From an uncultured Acidobacteriota bacterium (GTDB taxonomy: Bacteria > Acidobacteriota > Terriglobia > UBA7540), in assembly GCA_963804995.1 (NCBI GenBank), contig CAWDSK010000002.1, forward strand, positions 64,001 to 128,000: a stretch of DNA of 64,000 nucleotides. The letters run 5' to 3'. Made by a program: the position numbers and the translations under genes. The notes beneath the pieces were generated by a model. The model was given only the letters and a program-made list of their open reading frames with translations. It ran no database searches and was not told the origin of the DNA. Positions 37,751-61,238 of this stretch are shown here, piece by piece (the stretch's first letter is position 1; each line of letters opens with the position of its first letter).

Positions 37751-38659
37751 GAGCTTATCCGTAAATAATAATTGTCTGTCGCCAGCAGATCATGGCCGCG
37801 GCTAAGGTTAGTAGGGCGACGTAGCTTTCCTCGGTCTTTTCAAAGCTCACCAACACCTTGCGGTATCGGTTGAGCCAGGAATGGGTCCGCTCGACCACCC
37901 ATCGGCGAGCCTTGTAACCGGGGACGATACGTTTTGCTTCCATCTCTTCTCGCTGTTGCTTGATATGCGGCCGGTAGTGGCGGTTCGTGGCCGCTTGCCG
38001 AGCGCGGGATCCCTTGTAACCGGCATCGGCACAAAGGTGCTGGGGCTTTCTCGGTCGCGGTGCCGGTCGCGCTCTCACCACCTGGTCGAGGGTGGTGGCC
38101 AGCAGCTTCACATCATGCAGGTTGGCTCCGCTGACGGCGAGCGATAGTGGGACGCCACGCCCGTCGACTAACAAACTTCGCTTGCGCCCATTTTTTTCCC
38201 CGATCGGTGGGATTGGGTCCCACGCAAGTCAAGGCCAGCGGGGCTTTCACCATCGCTCCGTCGATGCTTTGCCAGTCCCAGGCAATGCCCTCCAGCTCAT
38301 CGTACTCGGCCAGCCCCGACCGCCAGAGCGCCAGAAAGAAACCCGCCCGGTGCCACTGTTGAAAATGCTTGTGGACCGCGCTGGCGCTGCCGAATTCCTT
38401 GGGCAAGGCCTTCCACTGACATCCCGTGCGCAGCACATACACAATGGCCGAGAAGATCCGGCGCGCCGGCATTGGCTTCCTCCCACCCCCCGGCTTCCGC
38501 CTATACTTTCGGCCTTTCGACCGCTGTCGAACCGGAATCAGCGGTTCGACTTTCACCCAAAACTCGTCGGATACTTCCCAAGATTTTATCTGCGGCATCT
38601 TGGGTCATAATCATGCATCAAATTGCAGCAGACTTCAATAAGTATTTACGGATAAGCTC
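37751..38659 (-). mobile_element. IS5-family insertion sequence (909 bp)
   Basis: Perfect 17-bp TIR GAGCTTATCCGTAAATA; TSD TAA at 37748-37750 and 38660-38662. Confidence 0.92.
37755..38598 (-). CDS. IS5-family transposase in two ORFs joined by a probable programmed frameshift
   Basis: OrfA YVLRTGCQWKALP...SIDG...PTDRGK; A7 run near 38191-38197; OrfB ADAGY, RWVVERTHSWLNRYR. Confidence 0.88.
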
Positions 38660-44546: not shown

Positions 44547-46259
44547 CTACCAGAAAATCCACTGCAGCAGGGCGAAAATGGCGAAGGAAATTGCCGCCCA
44601 AAAGATGGGGCGTTTGAGCAGCGGCAGGTGGCCTTCACTGGGGATTGCGGTGCAACCGTAAACCAGACCGGTCAACTCTTCCGCAGATTTCGGGCGCGTC
44701 ACGAGGCTCAAGGCCACGGTAACGATCAAAGCGACGAGGCCTGACCAGAGTTCCCGGTACATGTTTTCGGCCATGGGCTTGGCGTGAACCGAAAGGGCAA
44801 TCCAGGCGAGCTTGGAGGGATCCAGCTTGACCAGCAACCACATGCCCAGCGAGGAAAGCGTTCCCACCAGCAACCCCCAAAAGCCCCCGGCAGGCGTGGC
44901 GCGTTTCCACATCATCCCCAGAAAGACGGTAGAGAAAAACGGCGTGATAAAAAAGCTGAAGACGGCCTGCGCGTAATCCATGATGCTGGCGAACTGCATC
45001 ACCAGATACGCGGTACCGATGCTGATGATCACTCCCAGGATGGTGCACCAGCGCCCCATCAGCACGTAGTGGGCGTCGGACGCGGTCTTGCGGAGGAAAG
45101 GCCGGTAGAGATCGTACGTCCAAACCGTCGCGAAGGCGCTCACGTTGCCCGCCATGCCTGACATGAACCCGGCGATGAGCGCGGTAATCCCGAGCCCCAG
45201 CAAGCCCGGTCCACAATAGCGCGCCAGCATCAACGGCAGCACTTCGTTGTAAGTGTGTTGCCCGGGCCCGGCGGCGCTTTCCGGCAGGAGTTTGAAGGGC
45301 AAAAGGCCGAGCCCCAGCAGCCCGGGCAGGACCACGATGAGCGGCACGGCCATCTTGAAATAGGAAGCAATGACCGGCGCGAGCTTCGCGGCGCGGAGGT
45401 TTTTGGCGGCCAGCGCCCGCTGCACCACCAGGAAATCGGTGGTCCAATAGCCCAGCGACCCCATCAATAATCCAAAGGCGATGCCCGTCCAGTGGATGCC
45501 CATGGGGTTATCCGTAAAATGGGCCATGGGCCGCCACAAGTGGGTGTAGTCGCCTTCGGGAAAGTTGCGATGAATGCGCGCGACCAGGCCCGACCAGCCC
45601 CCCGCCTCCACCATGCCGAGAATCGGAATCATCAGCGCGCCCAGCCAAATCAGGAAGAACTGCAAAACCTCATTGAAGATTGCTGAAGTCAGCCCTCCCA
45701 AGGCGACGTAGATGGCTACCGTCAGCGACGAAATCCAAATGCTCAGGTGAATGTCCCAACCCAGCATTACTTTCATGACGACGGCCATGGCGTACATATT
45801 GATACCGGACATCAGGATGGTCAGGGCGACAAAAGACAACGCTCCAACCAGGCGGGTCGGTTCGCCGAAGCGGAGTTGCAGGTAGCCGGGCACCGAATGG
45901 GTCTTGCAGATGTAATAGAAGGGCATCATCACGACGCCCAGAAAAAGCATGGCGGGAATCGCCCCAAACCAATAATAATGCGCCGCCAGAATTCCGTACT
46001 GGTACGCCGACGCCGCCCATCCCATTAACTCGAGCGCCCCCAGATTGGCGCAAATGAAGCTGAGCCCCGCCACCCAGGCGGTCATATCGCGCCCCGCCAT
46101 GAAGAAATCTTCACCGCTCCTGGTGTAGCGCTTCAAGTAGAAGCCGATGGCGAGCACCACCACGAAATAAATGGCAATGATGAGGAAATCCACGGGGTGC
46201 GTGGAGAGGATCGCCGGCGAGCCGGCCAGAAGCAGGGCAATGGGGAAGCAAGTGGTCAT
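44547..46259 (-). CDS. Sodium:solute symporter (paralog 2)
   Basis: EDFFMAGRDM, LGGLTSAIFNEVLQ, YWTTDFLVVQR. Confidence 0.92.
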   Translation of the reverse strand: MTTCFPIALLLAGSPAILSTHPVDFLIIAIYFVVVLAIGFYLKRYTRSGEDFFMAGRDMTAWVAGLSFICANLGALELMGWAASAYQYGILAAHYYWFGAIPAMLFLGVVMMPFYYICKTHSVPGYLQLRFGEPTRLVGALSFVALTILMSGINMYAMAVVMKVMLGWDIHLSIWISSLTVAIYVALGGLTSAIFNEVLQFFLIWLGALMIPILGMVEAGGWSGLVARIHRNFPEGDYTHLWRPMAHFTDNPMGIHWTGIAFGLLMGSLGYWTTDFLVVQRALAAKNLRAAKLAPVIASYFKMAVPLIVVLPGLLGLGLLPFKLLPESAAGPGQHTYNEVLPLMLARYCGPGLLGLGITALIAGFMSGMAGNVSAFATVWTYDLYRPFLRKTASDAHYVLMGRWCTILGVIISIGTAYLVMQFASIMDYAQAVFSFFITPFFSTVFLGMMWKRATPAGGFWGLLVGTLSSLGMWLLVKLDPSKLAWIALSVHAKPMAENMYRELWSGLVALIVTVALSLVTRPKSAEELTGLVYGCTAIPSEGHLPLLKRPIFWAAISFAIFALLQWIFW

Positions 46260-46352: not shown

Positions 46353-46565
46353 TTAAGACTTCTTCGGCAGGTAAAGGTAAACATAAATGCCGCCGATGAC
46401 GGTAAGCAGCGCTCCCCACCACACGGCCGGATGCGTGCTGGCGAGCACCGTGGGAGGGGGGCTGGAGAACTCGTAGATGCCGGTACCGAAAATGATTAAC
46501 CCGTAAATCAGCAGAATGACGCCCACGAAAAACCAGACGGGAATCATGTGGTGATCTTCAGCCAT
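46353..46565 (-). CDS. Small two-TM membrane protein
   Basis: GAGG RBS; two hydrophobic segments; between the SSS genes. Confidence 0.75.
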   Translation of the reverse strand: MAEDHHMIPVWFFVGVILLIYGLIIFGTGIYEFSSPPPTVLASTHPAVWWGALLTVIGGIYVYLYLPKKS

Positions 46566-46620
46566 AAACTTAGACCTCGCGGTTCAAGCAACCAGCTCAA
46601 AGTGGCCAATAATCGTAGCG

Positions 46621-48533
46621 GTTGCGGTAGGGATACCGGTTACCCGGTACCCCCCGCACGGATCCGTACGTGCGCTGGTTAGCGCATACGGCTCTTATCT
46701 CGGATGTGTGGCGGCGAACCGTTGGGATGGCCAAGGATGCACAACGTGCGGAGCAGGCAACCAGCAGGCCGCAAGCTTCCCCAGTCGGTCCCAGTTGAGG
46801 CGGTGGCGTTGACTGCGTTGACGCAGTTGTGTTCGCCACAGTCGGGTCAACCGTTCCCGAAAGATTCGCAGGCGGTTGAGGTTTCCCGGTACCGCGTGAT
46901 AGTTGAAGTAGCCTTGCACGACCGACCGGAGCCATTTACCCGTATCCGCGATGGGATCGTGCCGACGCTGCCGGAGTTGTTGCTTGAGTTCCTGCAACTT
47001 CCCCCGCAGGCGCTTGCTGATCGTCTTCCGCTTCACGGTAAATTGCCCCCTCCGGTTCTTCCCGCTGATATGCGTGAAGCCCAGAAAGTCGAACGTCTCC
47101 GGCTTACCTTCTCCTCTCCGTTTCCGGTAAAGTTCGGCAAACGGCCCGAACTCGATCCGGCGCGTTTTGTCAGGATGCAGTTCCAATCCAAACTTCCCCA
47201 CCCGCTCCCGGAAATCCTCCAGAAAGCGGTCGGCTTCCGTCTGCGATTGGAATCCAAGGACCGTATCGTCGGCATACCGCACCACGACCACGTCTCCCCG
47301 GGCGTGCTTCTTGCGCCACGCCTGCACCCACAGGTCAAAGACGTAGTGCAGATAGATATTCGCCAGCAGGGGCGAGACCACCGCCCCTTGTGGCGTACCC
47401 ATCTCCGTCTCCGACCATTCGCCTTCCTCCCTCACCCCGGCTTTCAGCCATTTCTGGATGAGCCGGAGAATCCGGGGGTCGGCGACGCGATGCTGCACGA
47501 ACTTGAGCATCCATTCGTGGGATATCGAATCGAAAAATCCACGAATGTCCGCGTCAAGAACGTAGTTCACGTGCTTCACCGTGAGCGCGTACGAGAGCGC
47601 GTCCAGCGCTTGATGCTGGCTGCATCCCGGTCGAAAGCCATACGAGAAGCCCAGAAAGTCTTCCTCGTAAATCGCATTGAGGATGGTGACCACGGCCTGT
47701 TGGACGATCTTGTCCTCCAGTGCCGCAACCCCCAACGGACGTTGCCGCCCGTCGCCTTTCGGGATATACGCCCTTCGCGAGGGCTTCGCTCGGAATGCTC
47801 CGCGGTGGACCCGGCTGTGCAGATCGACGAGTCGACCTTCCAGCCCGCTTTCATACTCCTGCCACGTCATGCCGTCTACTCCCGGTGCAGCTTTTCGCTT
47901 CAAGGCGTAAAAGCTTTCCCGCAGCAGATCGACCGTTAAGTGGTGGAGCAAGGCCGTGAACTTCATCTCCCTGTGTTCCTTCGCGGCTTTCCGCACACCC
48001 GCGAGTCCCTGGGACACGCGTGCCCCGCTCTGTGTCGGGTGCGTGTTAGGCCAACGGGTGTTCTCCTTGATCAGCGGCCTTCCCTCCTCATTCTCCGCCA
48101 ACGGCTTCCCGTCTTTGTTCAAATGATTCATCGGTACTGTTCCGCTGTCCGACTCCTCGAAAGCGTGCAGGCGGGCTGTACGGCCATCGCCTTTTCCCGC
48201 CGTCCGGCCACGATCTACGGCGGCCGGCGCCTCCGAGGTCTCCCGGTTCTCGTGCAGAAAGTGTCTAGGCGTGTCTGGGGTCTACGACTACGCAGGACTG
48301 TGCCGGAACTCGCGTTGGCGTCCCGGCCTCATGTTGCCTTCCGTTTAGTCTGAAAACGTCGGCGTCCTGATTGGACATTTTCGAAGCTCAATACCCAGCC
48401 CACCTATTCCCCTGTTTACGCTTCACCGTGCGCCTCACGACGCCCAGCGCAAAACTCGGGGCCGAGTGGATCGCTGCTCCTTCCTCGTGAGAAATTTTCA
48501 TTCTCTGCTTTCTGCCGGTTTATCCCGGCGCAC
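46621..48533 (-). mobile_element. Complete group II intron (1913 nt), probably bacterial class E
   Basis: 5' GTGCG at 48533; domain V GAGCCGTATGCG...CGTACGGATC; domain VI ending CCCTACCGCAAC at 46621; EBS1 CAGACT 48352-48347. Class is inferred from IEP/RNA style. Confidence 0.93.
46695..48131 (-). CDS. ltrA: Group II intron reverse transcriptase/maturase, no HNH domain
   Basis: APGVDG, RPLG, FSYGFRPG, GTPQGAVVSPLLANIYL, RYADD, FDFLGF, GYFNYH. Confidence 0.95.
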   Translation of the reverse strand: MNHLNKDGKPLAENEEGRPLIKENTRWPNTHPTQSGARVSQGLAGVRKAAKEHREMKFTALLHHLTVDLLRESFYALKRKAAPGVDGMTWQEYESGLEGRLVDLHSRVHRGAFRAKPSRRAYIPKGDGRQRPLGVAALEDKIVQQAVVTILNAIYEEDFLGFSYGFRPGCSQHQALDALSYALTVKHVNYVLDADIRGFFDSISHEWMLKFVQHRVADPRILRLIQKWLKAGVREEGEWSETEMGTPQGAVVSPLLANIYLHYVFDLWVQAWRKKHARGDVVVVRYADDTVLGFQSQTEADRFLEDFRERVGKFGLELHPDKTRRIEFGPFAELYRKRRGEGKPETFDFLGFTHISGKNRRGQFTVKRKTISKRLRGKLQELKQQLRQRRHDPIADTGKWLRSVVQGYFNYHAVPGNLNRLRIFRERLTRLWRTQLRQRSQRHRLNWDRLGKLAACWLPAPHVVHPWPSQRFAATHPR

Positions 48534-48666
48534 CAGACCTCCGCTTTTGAGGTCTGCGGTTCTTCCTTAGTTTCACACTACCAAATCCACCGGCAGCCCC
48601 CCGTCGTTGAGAGCTGGGTCTTTCGTACGAAGAGCCGCGGACCTCAAAAGCGGAGGTCCGCGCTAC
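48534..48666. repeat. GTAG-type REP doublet whose left arm is split by the intron
   Basis: GTAGCG (46615-46620) + CAGACCTCCGCTTTTGAGGTCTGCGGTTCTTC; right arm GAAGAGCCGCGGACCTCAAAAGCGGAGGTCCGCGCTAC. Confidence 0.88.
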
Positions 48667-48671
48667 GCTCG

Positions 48672-50402
48672 CTACCAAAAGATCCACTGCAAGATCACGA
48701 ACAGCCCGGCGGAAATCGCGGCCCAGAAGATCGGCCGTTTCCACAGGGGCAAATGTCCCTCGCCAGGCAGTTCCGTGCAACCGTAGACCAAGTTCGTCAA
48801 CTCTTCCACGGGCTTGGGCTTCGTAAGGTAGCTGACCACCACCGTGACGATGACGCAAATCAGCCACGACCACAAGGCGCGATACATATTCTCCGCCATG
48901 TCCTTGGCATCTGGCGAAAGGGCTATGACGGCAAGCATGCGGTGATTGAATTTCACCATCAGGAACATGGCAATGGAGGAAACGCTGCCGGCAAGCAGTC
49001 CCCAGAATCCACCCGCGCTGGTGGTGCGCTTCCACAACATGCCGAGCAGCACGGTGCCAAACAGCGGCGCAATGAAAAAGCTGAAGAGCGCCTGGACGTA
49101 ATCCATGATGCTGCCGAACTGCATGACGAGGTAGGCGGTGCCGATGGAGACGACGACGCCCAAAATCGTGCACCAGCGCCCCATGCTGACGTAATGGCCG
49201 TCCGAAGCCTGCTTGCGGATGAAGGGACGGTAAAGGTCGTAAGTCCAGACCGTGGCAAAGGCGCTGACATTGCCCGCCATGCCCGACATGAATCCGGCGA
49301 TGAGCGCAGTGATGCCCAACCCCAGCAGGCCAGGGCCGCAATAACGCGCCAGCATCAGCGGCAGGACCTCGTTGTAGCTATGCTGCCCGGCGGTGACCGC
49401 GCTCTCCGGAAAGAGCTTGAAGGGCAACAGGCCAAGACCAAGCAAGCCCGGCAGGATAACGATGAAGGGCACAGCCATCTTGAAGTACGAACCAATGATG
49501 GGCGCCATCTTGGCGGCGCGAATATCCTTGGCGGCAAAGATGCGTTGCACGACGAGAAAATCGGTATTCCAGTAGCCGAAGGAAATCACCCAGCCGAGGC
49601 CTAACACGATGCCGGTCCAGTGGATGCCCATGGGATTGTCGGCAAAGTGGCCCATGTTCCGCCACAGGTGAGTGTAATCTCCTTGCGGAAGATTCTGGTG
49701 GATGCGCGCGACGAGGCCGGACCAGCCGCCCGTCTCGACCAAGCCCAGAATGGGAATCAGCAGCGCGCCCAGCCAGATGAGGAAGAACTGCAGGACCTCA
49801 TTGAAGATCGCGGAGAAGAGGCCGCCCAGGGCGACGTAAATCCCCACCGTGAGAGAAGATACCCAGATGCTGAAATGAATGTTCCAGCCCAGCACAACCT
49901 TCATCACCAAGGCCATTGCATACATATTAATGCCGGACATCAAAACAGTCATGAAGGCGAAGGAAATGGCGCTGAGCGCGCGCGTGGATTCACCATAGCG
50001 GAGCTGGAGATAACCCGGAACGGAATGGGTTTTGGAGATGTAGTAGAACGGCATCATGACCAGGCCCAGGAACAGAATGGCTGGGATCGCGCCCACCCAA
50101 TACCAATGGGTCGCCAGAATGCCGTACTGGTAGGAGGCGGCCGCCCAGCCCATCAGCTCCAGGGCGCCGAGGTTCGCGGAGATGAAACTCAGGCCCGCCA
50201 CCCAGGCGGTCATTTCGCGGCCCGCCAGGAAAAAGTCCTCACCACTTTTGGTGTAGCGCTTCAGGTAGAAGCCAATCCCCAACACCATCAGGAAGTAGAT
50301 GGCGACGATGGCCATGTCCACCGGATTCAGGAGAATAAGTCGCGGGCCGGCCGGGGCGGCGAACCAGAACAGGGCCAAGGGAATCGAAATAGGCAAGTTC
50401 AT
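48672..50402 (-). CDS. Sodium:solute symporter (paralog 1)
   Basis: EDFFLAGREM, YWNTDFLVVQR; highly similar to 44547..46259. Confidence 0.92.
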   Translation of the reverse strand: MNLPISIPLALFWFAAPAGPRLILLNPVDMAIVAIYFLMVLGIGFYLKRYTKSGEDFFLAGREMTAWVAGLSFISANLGALELMGWAAASYQYGILATHWYWVGAIPAILFLGLVMMPFYYISKTHSVPGYLQLRYGESTRALSAISFAFMTVLMSGINMYAMALVMKVVLGWNIHFSIWVSSLTVGIYVALGGLFSAIFNEVLQFFLIWLGALLIPILGLVETGGWSGLVARIHQNLPQGDYTHLWRNMGHFADNPMGIHWTGIVLGLGWVISFGYWNTDFLVVQRIFAAKDIRAAKMAPIIGSYFKMAVPFIVILPGLLGLGLLPFKLFPESAVTAGQHSYNEVLPLMLARYCGPGLLGLGITALIAGFMSGMAGNVSAFATVWTYDLYRPFIRKQASDGHYVSMGRWCTILGVVVSIGTAYLVMQFGSIMDYVQALFSFFIAPLFGTVLLGMLWKRTTSAGGFWGLLAGSVSSIAMFLMVKFNHRMLAVIALSPDAKDMAENMYRALWSWLICVIVTVVVSYLTKPKPVEELTNLVYGCTELPGEGHLPLWKRPIFWAAISAGLFVILQWIFW

Positions 50403-59915: not shown

Positions 59916-61238
59916 ATGAACGCTTGGCAAGAAATCCTGGGTTACCTGAAGACCAAGGTGAACACGCAGAGTTACCAGACGTGGTTGCGGCCGACCCGCT
60001 TCAGCCACGTTGACCAGGGAGCACTCGTGGTGCGAGTTCCTAACCGCGAGTTTCAGGATTGGATTCAGGAGCACTACGGCGGGATGATTCATGATGCGGT
60101 CACTGAGCTCCAGTTAGACTTGCAGAAAGTCCGCTACGTGGTGGAAGAAAGCACCGACAAGAAGCCCATGGAGAGCGGGGAGGGAAAAACCTTTCAGGCT
60201 AAGCTGGATTTTGAATCTGTCGACCACCAACTGAACCCCCGCTACACTTTTGACACTTTTGTGGTCGGGAATTGCAACCAGTTTGCCCACGCCGCTGCGC
60301 AAGCCGTGGCGGAAACGCCGGCCAAGGCCTACAACCCGTTGTTCCTCTATGGCGGAGTAGGGCTGGGAAAGACGCACCTCATGCAAGCCGTCGGCCACAT
60401 GATCAAGGGTAAGTGGAGAGAAATGCGGTTGGCCTATGTTTCCTCCGAAAGTTTTACGAACGAGGTGATAAACTCTCTCCGCTACGACCGCATGGTTTCT
60501 TTCCGTGATAAATACCGTAATGTGGACGTCCTGCTGATGGATGATATTGAGTTCATCGGTGGCAAGGAGCGAACCCAGGAAGAGTTTTTCCACACCTTCA
60601 ACACTTTGTACGAGGCGCAAAAGCAGGTCGTGATCTCCAGTGACTGCCCGCCCAAAGAGATCACGGGACTGGAAGAGCGTCTCCGTTCGCGCTTCGCCTG
60701 GGGTCTAACCGCGGATTTGCAAGCACCGGACCTGGAGACGAAGCGGGCGATCCTGGCCAAGAAGACAGAATCGCAGAGCGTGGTTCTGCCTGACGATGTC
60801 AGTGAGTTTATCGCCCGCAAGATCAAATCGAGTGTTCGCGACTTGGAAGGGGCACTGACGCGTCTGATTGCCTACTCCTCATTGACGGGCGCCTCCATCT
60901 CCCTCGTCATGGCGCAGCAGGTACTCAAGAACCTGATTGACCTGGAGGATCGGCGAGTTTCCATTGAGAATGTTCAGCGGGCGGTTTGCAGGGAGTTTGG
61001 ACTTACCTTGCCGCAGTTAAAGGCCAAGGATAACAGCCGAGCGGTTGCCTATCCGCGGCAGATCGCGATGTTCCTTACCAAGGAACTGACTCCGGCGTCG
61101 TTGCCTCAGATCGGCAGGGAGTTTGGCGGAAAACATCACACCACGGTTCTGCACTCGATCAATAAAATCGCGGAGATGCGGGAAAGTGACAGGGATTTGA
61201 ACAGACTTCTTAACAAGCTACGTGATGGCCTGAATTGA
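59916..61238 (+). CDS. dnaA: Chromosomal replication initiator DnaA
   Basis: YTFDTFVVGNCN, NPLFLYGGVGLGKTHL, TQEEFFHTFN, FGGKHHTTVLH. Confidence 0.98.
   Translation: MNAWQEILGYLKTKVNTQSYQTWLRPTRFSHVDQGALVVRVPNREFQDWIQEHYGGMIHDAVTELQLDLQKVRYVVEESTDKKPMESGEGKTFQAKLDFESVDHQLNPRYTFDTFVVGNCNQFAHAAAQAVAETPAKAYNPLFLYGGVGLGKTHLMQAVGHMIKGKWREMRLAYVSSESFTNEVINSLRYDRMVSFRDKYRNVDVLLMDDIEFIGGKERTQEEFFHTFNTLYEAQKQVVISSDCPPKEITGLEERLRSRFAWGLTADLQAPDLETKRAILAKKTESQSVVLPDDVSEFIARKIKSSVRDLEGALTRLIAYSSLTGASISLVMAQQVLKNLIDLEDRRVSIENVQRAVCREFGLTLPQLKAKDNSRAVAYPRQIAMFLTKELTPASLPQIGREFGGKHHTTVLHSINKIAEMRESDRDLNRLLNKLRDGLN

Follow-up and report, generated by a model that had tools for sequence, protein, structure and literature searches.

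A class E group II intron residing in REP palindromes of an uncultured Acidobacteriota bacterium

We analysed a stretch of 64,000 nt (the window) from an uncultured Acidobacteriota bacterium (assembly GCA_963804995.1, contig CAWDSK010000002.1, positions 64,001 to 128,000), in which a group II intron splits one arm of an inverted doublet of repetitive extragenic palindromes (REPs). An earlier note, made from the letters of the window, had read the element as an intron that homes to a REP. The genome supports this interpretation: wherever the flanks of a copy are readable, removal of the intron restores a palindrome of REP type. The reading is refined in that two REP families are used, one with a GTAG foot and one of CTGG type. 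The process is probably standard, fork-primed retrohoming guided by exon-binding sites (EBS) onto an abundant intergenic repeat, with the REP being read mainly as linear sequence; the landing site is unusual and the machinery most likely familiar. As far as genome sequences can demonstrate it, the insertion position, the guide pairings and the dependence of occupancy on EBS1 match and on strand are established.

Results

Structure and class of the intron

Excision of positions 46621-48533 restores, on the minus strand, one complete arm of an inverted GTAG doublet, just as the earlier note had claimed. The features of the intron, of its intron-encoded protein (IEP) and of the split REP, which contains the intron-binding sites (IBS), are as follows.

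46621..48533, minus strand: group II intron of class E, 1,913 nt; the RNA begins with GUGCG and its last letters are AAC
48534..48560, plus strand: hairpin body of the split GTAG REP arm, the minus-strand 5' exon end, with IBS1 in the stem
46615..46620, plus strand: GTAG foot of the split REP arm, the first 6 nt of the minus-strand 3' exon
48634..48666, minus strand: partner GTAG REP arm of the inverted doublet, GGTCCG variant, empty
48347..48352, minus strand: EBS1 CAGACU, partner of exon -6..-1 (domain I folding and covariation)
48353, minus strand: U, presumed delta base, adjoining EBS1
48373..48377, minus strand: EBS2 UGUCC, partner of exon -9..-13 within the REP loop (alignment with relatives)
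48285, minus strand: EBS3 G, partner of exon +1 (covariation)
46695..48131, minus strand: IEP (reverse transcriptase/maturase), 478 aa, YADD, without endonuclease (En) domain (open reading frame and profile matches)
46661..46694, minus strand: domain V with AGC triad (folding)
46624..46657, minus strand: domain VI with bulged A, the putative branch point (folding)

The element has GUGYG...AY ends, a domain I, a domain V with catalytic triad and a domain VI with bulged A, and it matches Rfam RF02005 (group II D1-D4-6) at 48498-48278 with 170 bits (gathering score 49). Domains V and VI give the expected folds; the loop of domain V is not of the GNRA type and has 4 nt closed by U-A in our fold, the class E signature being a loop of 5 nt. 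EBS1 is presented by a hairpin at 48358-48342, and its pairing with the exon end GGUCUG, already described in the earlier note, not only holds here but also covaries with the exon in relatives. A search for the complement of EBS2 immediately 5' of IBS1 gave no credible match, and EBS2 was found by aligning domain I of the relatives. The IEP matches TIGR04416 with 343 bits (cut-off 300). Its sole Pfam match is RVT_1; no HNH or En domain was found by the Pfam search, in agreement with the first reading. The start codon may lie further upstream than called, since the frame remains open there.

Judged by its protein, the intron belongs to class E (IIE). The IEP shares 57% identity with a 495-aa protein of plasmid R478, which was assigned to the intron S.ma.I1 by plasmid and protein size, and 30-36% with references of classes D (33%), F and g1, taken from the tables of PMC3552965. 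S.ma.I1 is listed as class E in the available supplement of PMC4244168. A phylogeny of the IEP, which the earlier note had proposed, groups it with the class E rows (support 98/94), the second class E reference being a fragment from A. caldus; this tree contained no class C row. Class C (IIC) was rejected: IBS1 has 6 nt and is part of the stem itself, covariation ties EBS2 to the target, and the IEP is far closer to class E. The reverse transcriptase of GsI-IIC scored 137.5 bits (phmmer), within the range of distant maturases (118-144 bits). The plasmid matches did not include pRmeGR4b's disrupted class E intron.

Copies in the genome and their targets

The 7.55-Mb assembly contains 40 copies of the intron with at least 99.6% identity, 38 of them complete and two cut by contig ends, and a full-length IEP reading frame with at least 99% identity is present in 36 of the 38 complete copies. 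The sequence beyond the REP differs among copies. Such near-identity combined with different flanks points to recent mobility, and by this measure the intron has been active recently and strongly. Complete copies flanked by 50 nt or more on each side number 36, and every one of them is inserted at one and the same point of a hairpin arm, 2 nt above the stem foot, so that the insertion site is not due to chance; their stems score 10/10 in 30 cases, 9 in four, 8 in one and 7 in one. Across the 37 copies that have 34 nt or more upstream, exon positions -5..-3, -1, +1..+3 and +5 are invariant, and the targets comprise 23 GTAG REPs, 13 CTGG-type REPs and one variant of the CTGG type. Copies in non-REP sites sharing just the 6-mer, which the earlier note had named as the result that would speak against REP homing, were not seen.

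The GTAG element is a multicopy extragenic palindrome with a GTAG foot. Two patterns matched 202 and 105 GTAG-type arms in the genome, about 300 in all, among which are inverted doublets, clusters and arrays. Occupied REP sites fall between long open reading frames (ORFs) according to a rough ORF heuristic, and these intergenic positions suggest that the REP may be a "safe" homing site. The profile NF047646 for REP-associated tyrosine transposases (RAYT) scored above its cut-off at two loci, on contig C5 (C5:58.4k, with GTAG repeats beside it) and on contig C6 (C6:722.5k, with CTGG-type repeats). Two of the 14 Y1_Tnp matches are closely flanked by REPs and the other 12 are not. At both RAYT genes, one of the flanking repeats carries an intron copy.

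Four contig ends (C2 start, C6 end, C7 start, C9 end) lie within or beside intron copies, and the tandem intron pairs at the C6 end and the C7 start may be assembly artefacts. The same genome harbors two unrelated multicopy group II intron families with non-REP targets, the first at C6:294-297 kb, C5:1.087 and 1.126 Mb, C1:26 kb and C4:161 kb, the second at C3:1.126 Mb and C1:98 and 289 kb; one of the two includes a head-to-tail pair on C6.

Occupancy in relation to guide match and strand

Occupancy of REP sites drops with mismatch to EBS1, as the following counts show (the slash marks the insertion point).

Hairpin sites GGTCTG/CGCTAC: 18 of 95 occupied
Hairpin sites GGTCTG/CGCCAG: 11 of 35 occupied
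Hairpin sites GGTCCG: 4 of 101 occupied
Hairpin sites GGACCG: 0 of 101 occupied
Other end of the same palindromes, likewise GTCTG/CG: 0 of 145 occupied

Strand was assessed by replichore direction, for which dnaA served as the reference on C2 and whole-contig GC skew on C3-C6; the eight copies on C1, C7 and C9 were ambiguous and were excluded from these counts. The lagging-strand template carries 31 of the 32 assignable copies. Among hairpin sites ending in TG, 26 of 60 are occupied on the lagging-strand template as compared to 1 of 76 on the other strand (p=2e-10); lagging-template CG sites are filled in 3 of 53 cases and GACCG sites in none of 51. On C2 the copies invert across dnaA (C2:124231), with the two on the left in minus and the three on the right in plus orientation. 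Local GC skew (+/-100 kb), which placed 30 of 40 copies on the G-rich strand, proved noisy as a strand guide and was replaced by contig-level skew and dnaA.

Orientation tracks replication and not the operon. The intron is indeed sense to the operon at the present locus, as the earlier note had stated, but this is incidental: co-orientation with transcription was rejected as a rule, the upstream gene being co-oriented in just 21 of 34 scorable copies (rough ORF heuristic). The partner arm 48634..48666 is empty, again as first described, and its target strand is the leading-strand template. Its single mismatch is not the sole cause, and the arm is empty because of strand as well as mismatch; immunity of GGTCCG arms is ruled out by the four occupied copies.

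Sites that match EBS1, EBS2 and EBS3 and have a different 3' exon are empty throughout (0 of 265), suggesting that the protein contacts +2..+5, that other context matters, or that selection acts.

Guide covariation in relatives

The pairings were examined in 50 distinct EBS sets from 76 rows, with six loci or rows with false starts dropped and with 5000 shuffles. EBS1 forms 4.56 of 5 Watson-Crick pairs with the exon, as compared to 2.97 after shuffling, and the first three bases of EBS2 form 2.40 of 3 as compared to 1.31 with two registers allowed, in both cases with 0 of 5000 shuffles as high; the rows share ancestry, so that these counts exaggerate significance and are not probabilities. EBS2 covaries with the target at -9..-11. 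EBS3 is complementary to +1 in 58 of 62 rows, and in 15 of the 19 rows in which +1 is not C (three loci whose 3' ends are doubtful were left out).

A scan of species genomes gave 79 relative loci, nearly all from Acidobacteriota. The nearest relative, in a genome of the same genus (G005/G061), has a 93% identical IEP and EBS1 CGGACU, and its six copies all lie in REPs, at sites ending in CCG. EBS1 CAGAC occurs together with GTCTG sites in genomes G026 and G002 and in a metagenome-assembled genome of Ca. Angelobacter, and likewise in ORF-less relatives of 650 nt.

A metagenome scan with the 5' end of the intron as query yielded at least 120 loci, and after removal of 5 short-flanked and 11 duplicate ones 104 distinct sites remained. 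Among the matches listed, the exon end lies in a stem of at least 7/8 in 40 of the 104 sites (shuffle mean 1.0, maximum 6 in 2000 shuffles). All 40 belong to the 53 sites which end in GTCYG, CTCTG or GTATG; the other 13 of these palindrome-type sites score below 7/8, including L222, which lacks a 5' arm, and none of the clade's remaining 51 sites has such a stem. On this comparison, the clade switches targets among intergenic repeats and its scaffold does not require a hairpin, the latter following from the hairpin-less repeat sites of sister lineages.

Several lineages of the clade have targets of their own. One (L017, L018, L025, L032, L127-L132) inserts into an A-rich tandem repeat of ~40 nt without hairpin, which is frequent in those genomes; remnants of it are found in the source genome at C2:652257 and C1:206552. 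A large Acidobacteriaceae lineage (many of L019-L093) uses one conserved site of ~30 nt, with sub-lineages on opposite strands. Copies of the sister lineage with EBS1 UGGCUA (L098, L165, L168) occupy the GTAG strand of another palindrome family, close to its GTAG foot, and a remnant is present in the source genome at C5:460087. Furthermore, a CTCTG-type palindrome at C1:441114 contains the 5' remnant of a related intron, whose EBS1 is CAGAG.

Some relatives have 5' ends that are 1-2 nt longer, namely GAAAGCG in 41 of the 104 sites among the matches listed, as well as GUAGCG, GAAGCG and GUAAGCG (L016, L026, L151, L160, L161, L163, L164, L166 and many of L216-L335). Palindrome-type targets were recorded for 32 of the 41 GAAAGCG introns in this set, and the introns with long 5' ends and a readable 3' end retain the A of domain VI.

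Neighbouring genes and sequencing runs

The surroundings of the intron in the window comprise the following features.

48672..50402, minus strand: sodium:solute symporter gene (SSF; Pfam), upstream of the intron
46353..46565, minus strand: hydrophobic ORF of 70 aa downstream of the intron, without Pfam match
44547-46259: second SSF gene, after the 70-aa ORF
~60231-60713 (C2:124231-124713): sole dnaA match of the genome, ~11.7 kb from the intron

The dnaA match lies close to the minimum of the cumulative GC skew. At 37755-38598, two overlapping ORFs resemble a frameshift-split transposase, which we take to be of IS5 type.

Contigs of sequencing runs were searched as well; no joint skipping exactly the intron was found in them, and no run contained half of the query words. 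Pieces of related introns turned up at low depth in one RNA run; this is not evidence of expression or of splicing. A single study had two runs with contigs (depth 3.6 and 5.4; short side 26 nt) in which the flanking genes are joined and the REP-intron stretch is missing; this is no more than a weak hint.

Discussion

A guided retroelement on an abundant repeat

Two abundant REP families, both associated with a RAYT, have an iREP (CTAC-side) strand that matches the exon-binding sites. By analogy with RmInt1 and RmInt2, the spliced RNA-protein particle would reverse-splice into single-stranded DNA at the replication fork, the copying would be primed by the nascent lagging strand, and the IEP would read exon positions +2..+5. 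The benefit of the REP to the intron would lie in its many intergenic copies; as these are often paired in inverted orientation, one arm of a pair faces the favoured strand.

Several observations weigh against this explanation. On the favoured strand, none of 16 hairpin-less linear GTCTG/CGCYA sites is occupied, as compared to 26 of 60 hairpin sites (p=7e-4); these 16 sites all lack the IBS2 core, and 10 of the 28 such sites in total belong to one repeated element. Five occupied TG sites are without the IBS2 core. In almost every copy, IBS1 is predicted to be base-paired within the stem of the exon itself, which should impede both splicing and reverse splicing, and the linear model therefore requires an opened stem. 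In the nearest relative, G005/G061, EBS1 is mismatched at -4 in five of the six sites. To these points are added the shared ancestry behind the covariation counts and the strand assignment of C3-C6, for which whole-contig skew is weak and was applied after the orientations were known.

Alternative explanations

Some of these points are what would be expected if the folded REP were part of the signal, with EBS2 first gaining a toehold in the loop and EBS1, whose sequence is almost the same as that of the REP's 5' arm, then displacing this arm, or with the protein binding the hairpin as is thought for class C. In a wider form, a class E lineage would have been re-aimed repeatedly at host REP families and would read folded single-stranded DNA, EBS2 using the loop as toehold and EBS1 mimicking the 5' arm of the REP to invade the stem. 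We consider the narrower version unlikely and are similarly doubtful of the wider one. The geometry itself fits, as in every copy of this genome the loop contains IBS2 and the 3' arm contains IBS1, and it recurs in palindromes of divergent sequence (40 of 53 metagenome sites with a stem of at least 7/8 among the matches listed, against the shuffle mean of 1.0 per 104); the empty non-hairpin linear sites (0 of 16) point the same way. However, a palindromic target yields such geometry automatically, 13 of those 53 sites including L222 fall below the stem threshold, and the clade's other 51 listed sites are hairpin-less. When only favoured-strand sites without the IBS2 core are compared, the contrast shrinks to 4 of 15 hairpin sites and 0 of 12 non-hairpin sites. 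No result favours recognition of the hairpin decisively, and reading of the linear sequence is preferred. If the REP were nevertheless read in folded form, the intron would use the iREP strand, which TnpAREP, according to the available text of PMC8266576, does not bind, its ligand being the REP strand. The stem would then conceal IBS1 in the precursor RNA and dampen splicing, and insertion, which separates the GTAG foot from the hairpin, could remove the REP from the reach of the RAYT. It would also constitute a further targeting mode beside the group II intron specificities enumerated in the accessible part of PMC4424553, which are homing sites, terminators and attC.

It is much less probable that any occurrence of a short linear motif can receive the intron and that selection purges genic insertions, so that those in REPs remain. 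Selection against intron insertions has been argued for Enterobacteriales (PMC3522654, in the sections available), and the full motif is scarce outside REPs, where only 4 non-hairpin sites combine TG, the IBS2 core and CGCYA, which makes this genome a poor test of the idea. Against it stand the 265 empty sites with matching guides and another 3' exon and the non-REP sites occupied by the two other intron families; moreover, the motif practically equals the REP, so that this explanation differs from guided retrohoming in emphasis alone. Passive spread of the intron with REP or REPIN units through the RAYT transposase or gene conversion is hardly credible: two copies do lie in REPs flanking RAYT genes, but flanks differ beyond the REP, two REP families are used, occupancy tracks EBS1 pairing and replication strand, and 36 of 38 complete copies retain the full-length reading frame at 99% identity or more.

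Comparison with known systems

Among the closest known systems are RmInt1 and RmInt2 of Sinorhizobium meliloti (PMC4615759, PMC5894124), which likewise lack the En domain and are biased to the lagging-strand template. RmInt2 has the same two-base linker before IBS2 and occupies both inverted repeats of ISRm17, one of which thus faces the lagging strand; this is a close precedent for REP homing. Their protein is of class D and their target an insertion sequence (IS), in contrast to the class E protein and the non-autonomous REP of ~30 nt found here, and the available sections of both papers do not describe IBS1 in a local hairpin stem, where it lies in the present intron.

The class E introns S.ma.I1 (R478) and Cl.be.I2 share with our element an RT-X architecture without En and the presence of EBS1, EBS2 and EBS3, yet no REP target is described for them in the available sections of PMC4244168 and PMC3753933, as opposed to ~40 REP copies here. 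EBS2 is dispensable for class E splicing in vitro and a role in homing has been proposed for it (PMC3753933), whereas in the present intron it covaries with the target. Class C introns, which insert after terminators or in attC (PMC4424553, PMC7923331), resemble it in lacking En and in having intergenic hairpin targets, but have an IBS1 of 3-4 bp downstream of the stem and no EBS2, in contrast to a 6-nt IBS1 in the stem and a covarying EBS2.

REPs are also multicopy landing sites for ISs, some of which are 100% REP-associated (Tobes and Pareja 2006, PMC1525189); these are DNA transposases and not group II introns. For a group II intron of P. putida KT2440 the same source gives a REP association of 2 in 9, compared to 36 of 36 copies at one position here. 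No REP-homing group II intron was found in the open-access literature, the scope of which left aside subscription papers (Toro 2002, Simon 2008, Robart 2007) and bioRxiv supplements; the word "intron" is absent from PMC3733652.

At S.ma.I1 itself (L337:12115-14000 on plasmid R478), a LexA-box-like palindrome, called by what we take to be the LexA consensus, forms the end of the 5' exon, upstream of umuD. A literature search returned no paper linking an S.ma.I1-type intron with LexA-box or umuD terms.

Implications

With this intron, REP elements join the natural targets of group II introns, and a retroelement is seen to live on a host repeat that is itself spread by a transposase. A single genome thereby serves as a natural selection experiment, in which ~350 near-identical targets differ by single bases or by strand and 40 of them are filled, and from which the homing rules of class E can be read. 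Since the guide sites switch among several repeat families within the clade, retargeting should be traceable in evolution. For the host, forty identical repeats of 1.9 kb are substrates for rearrangement.
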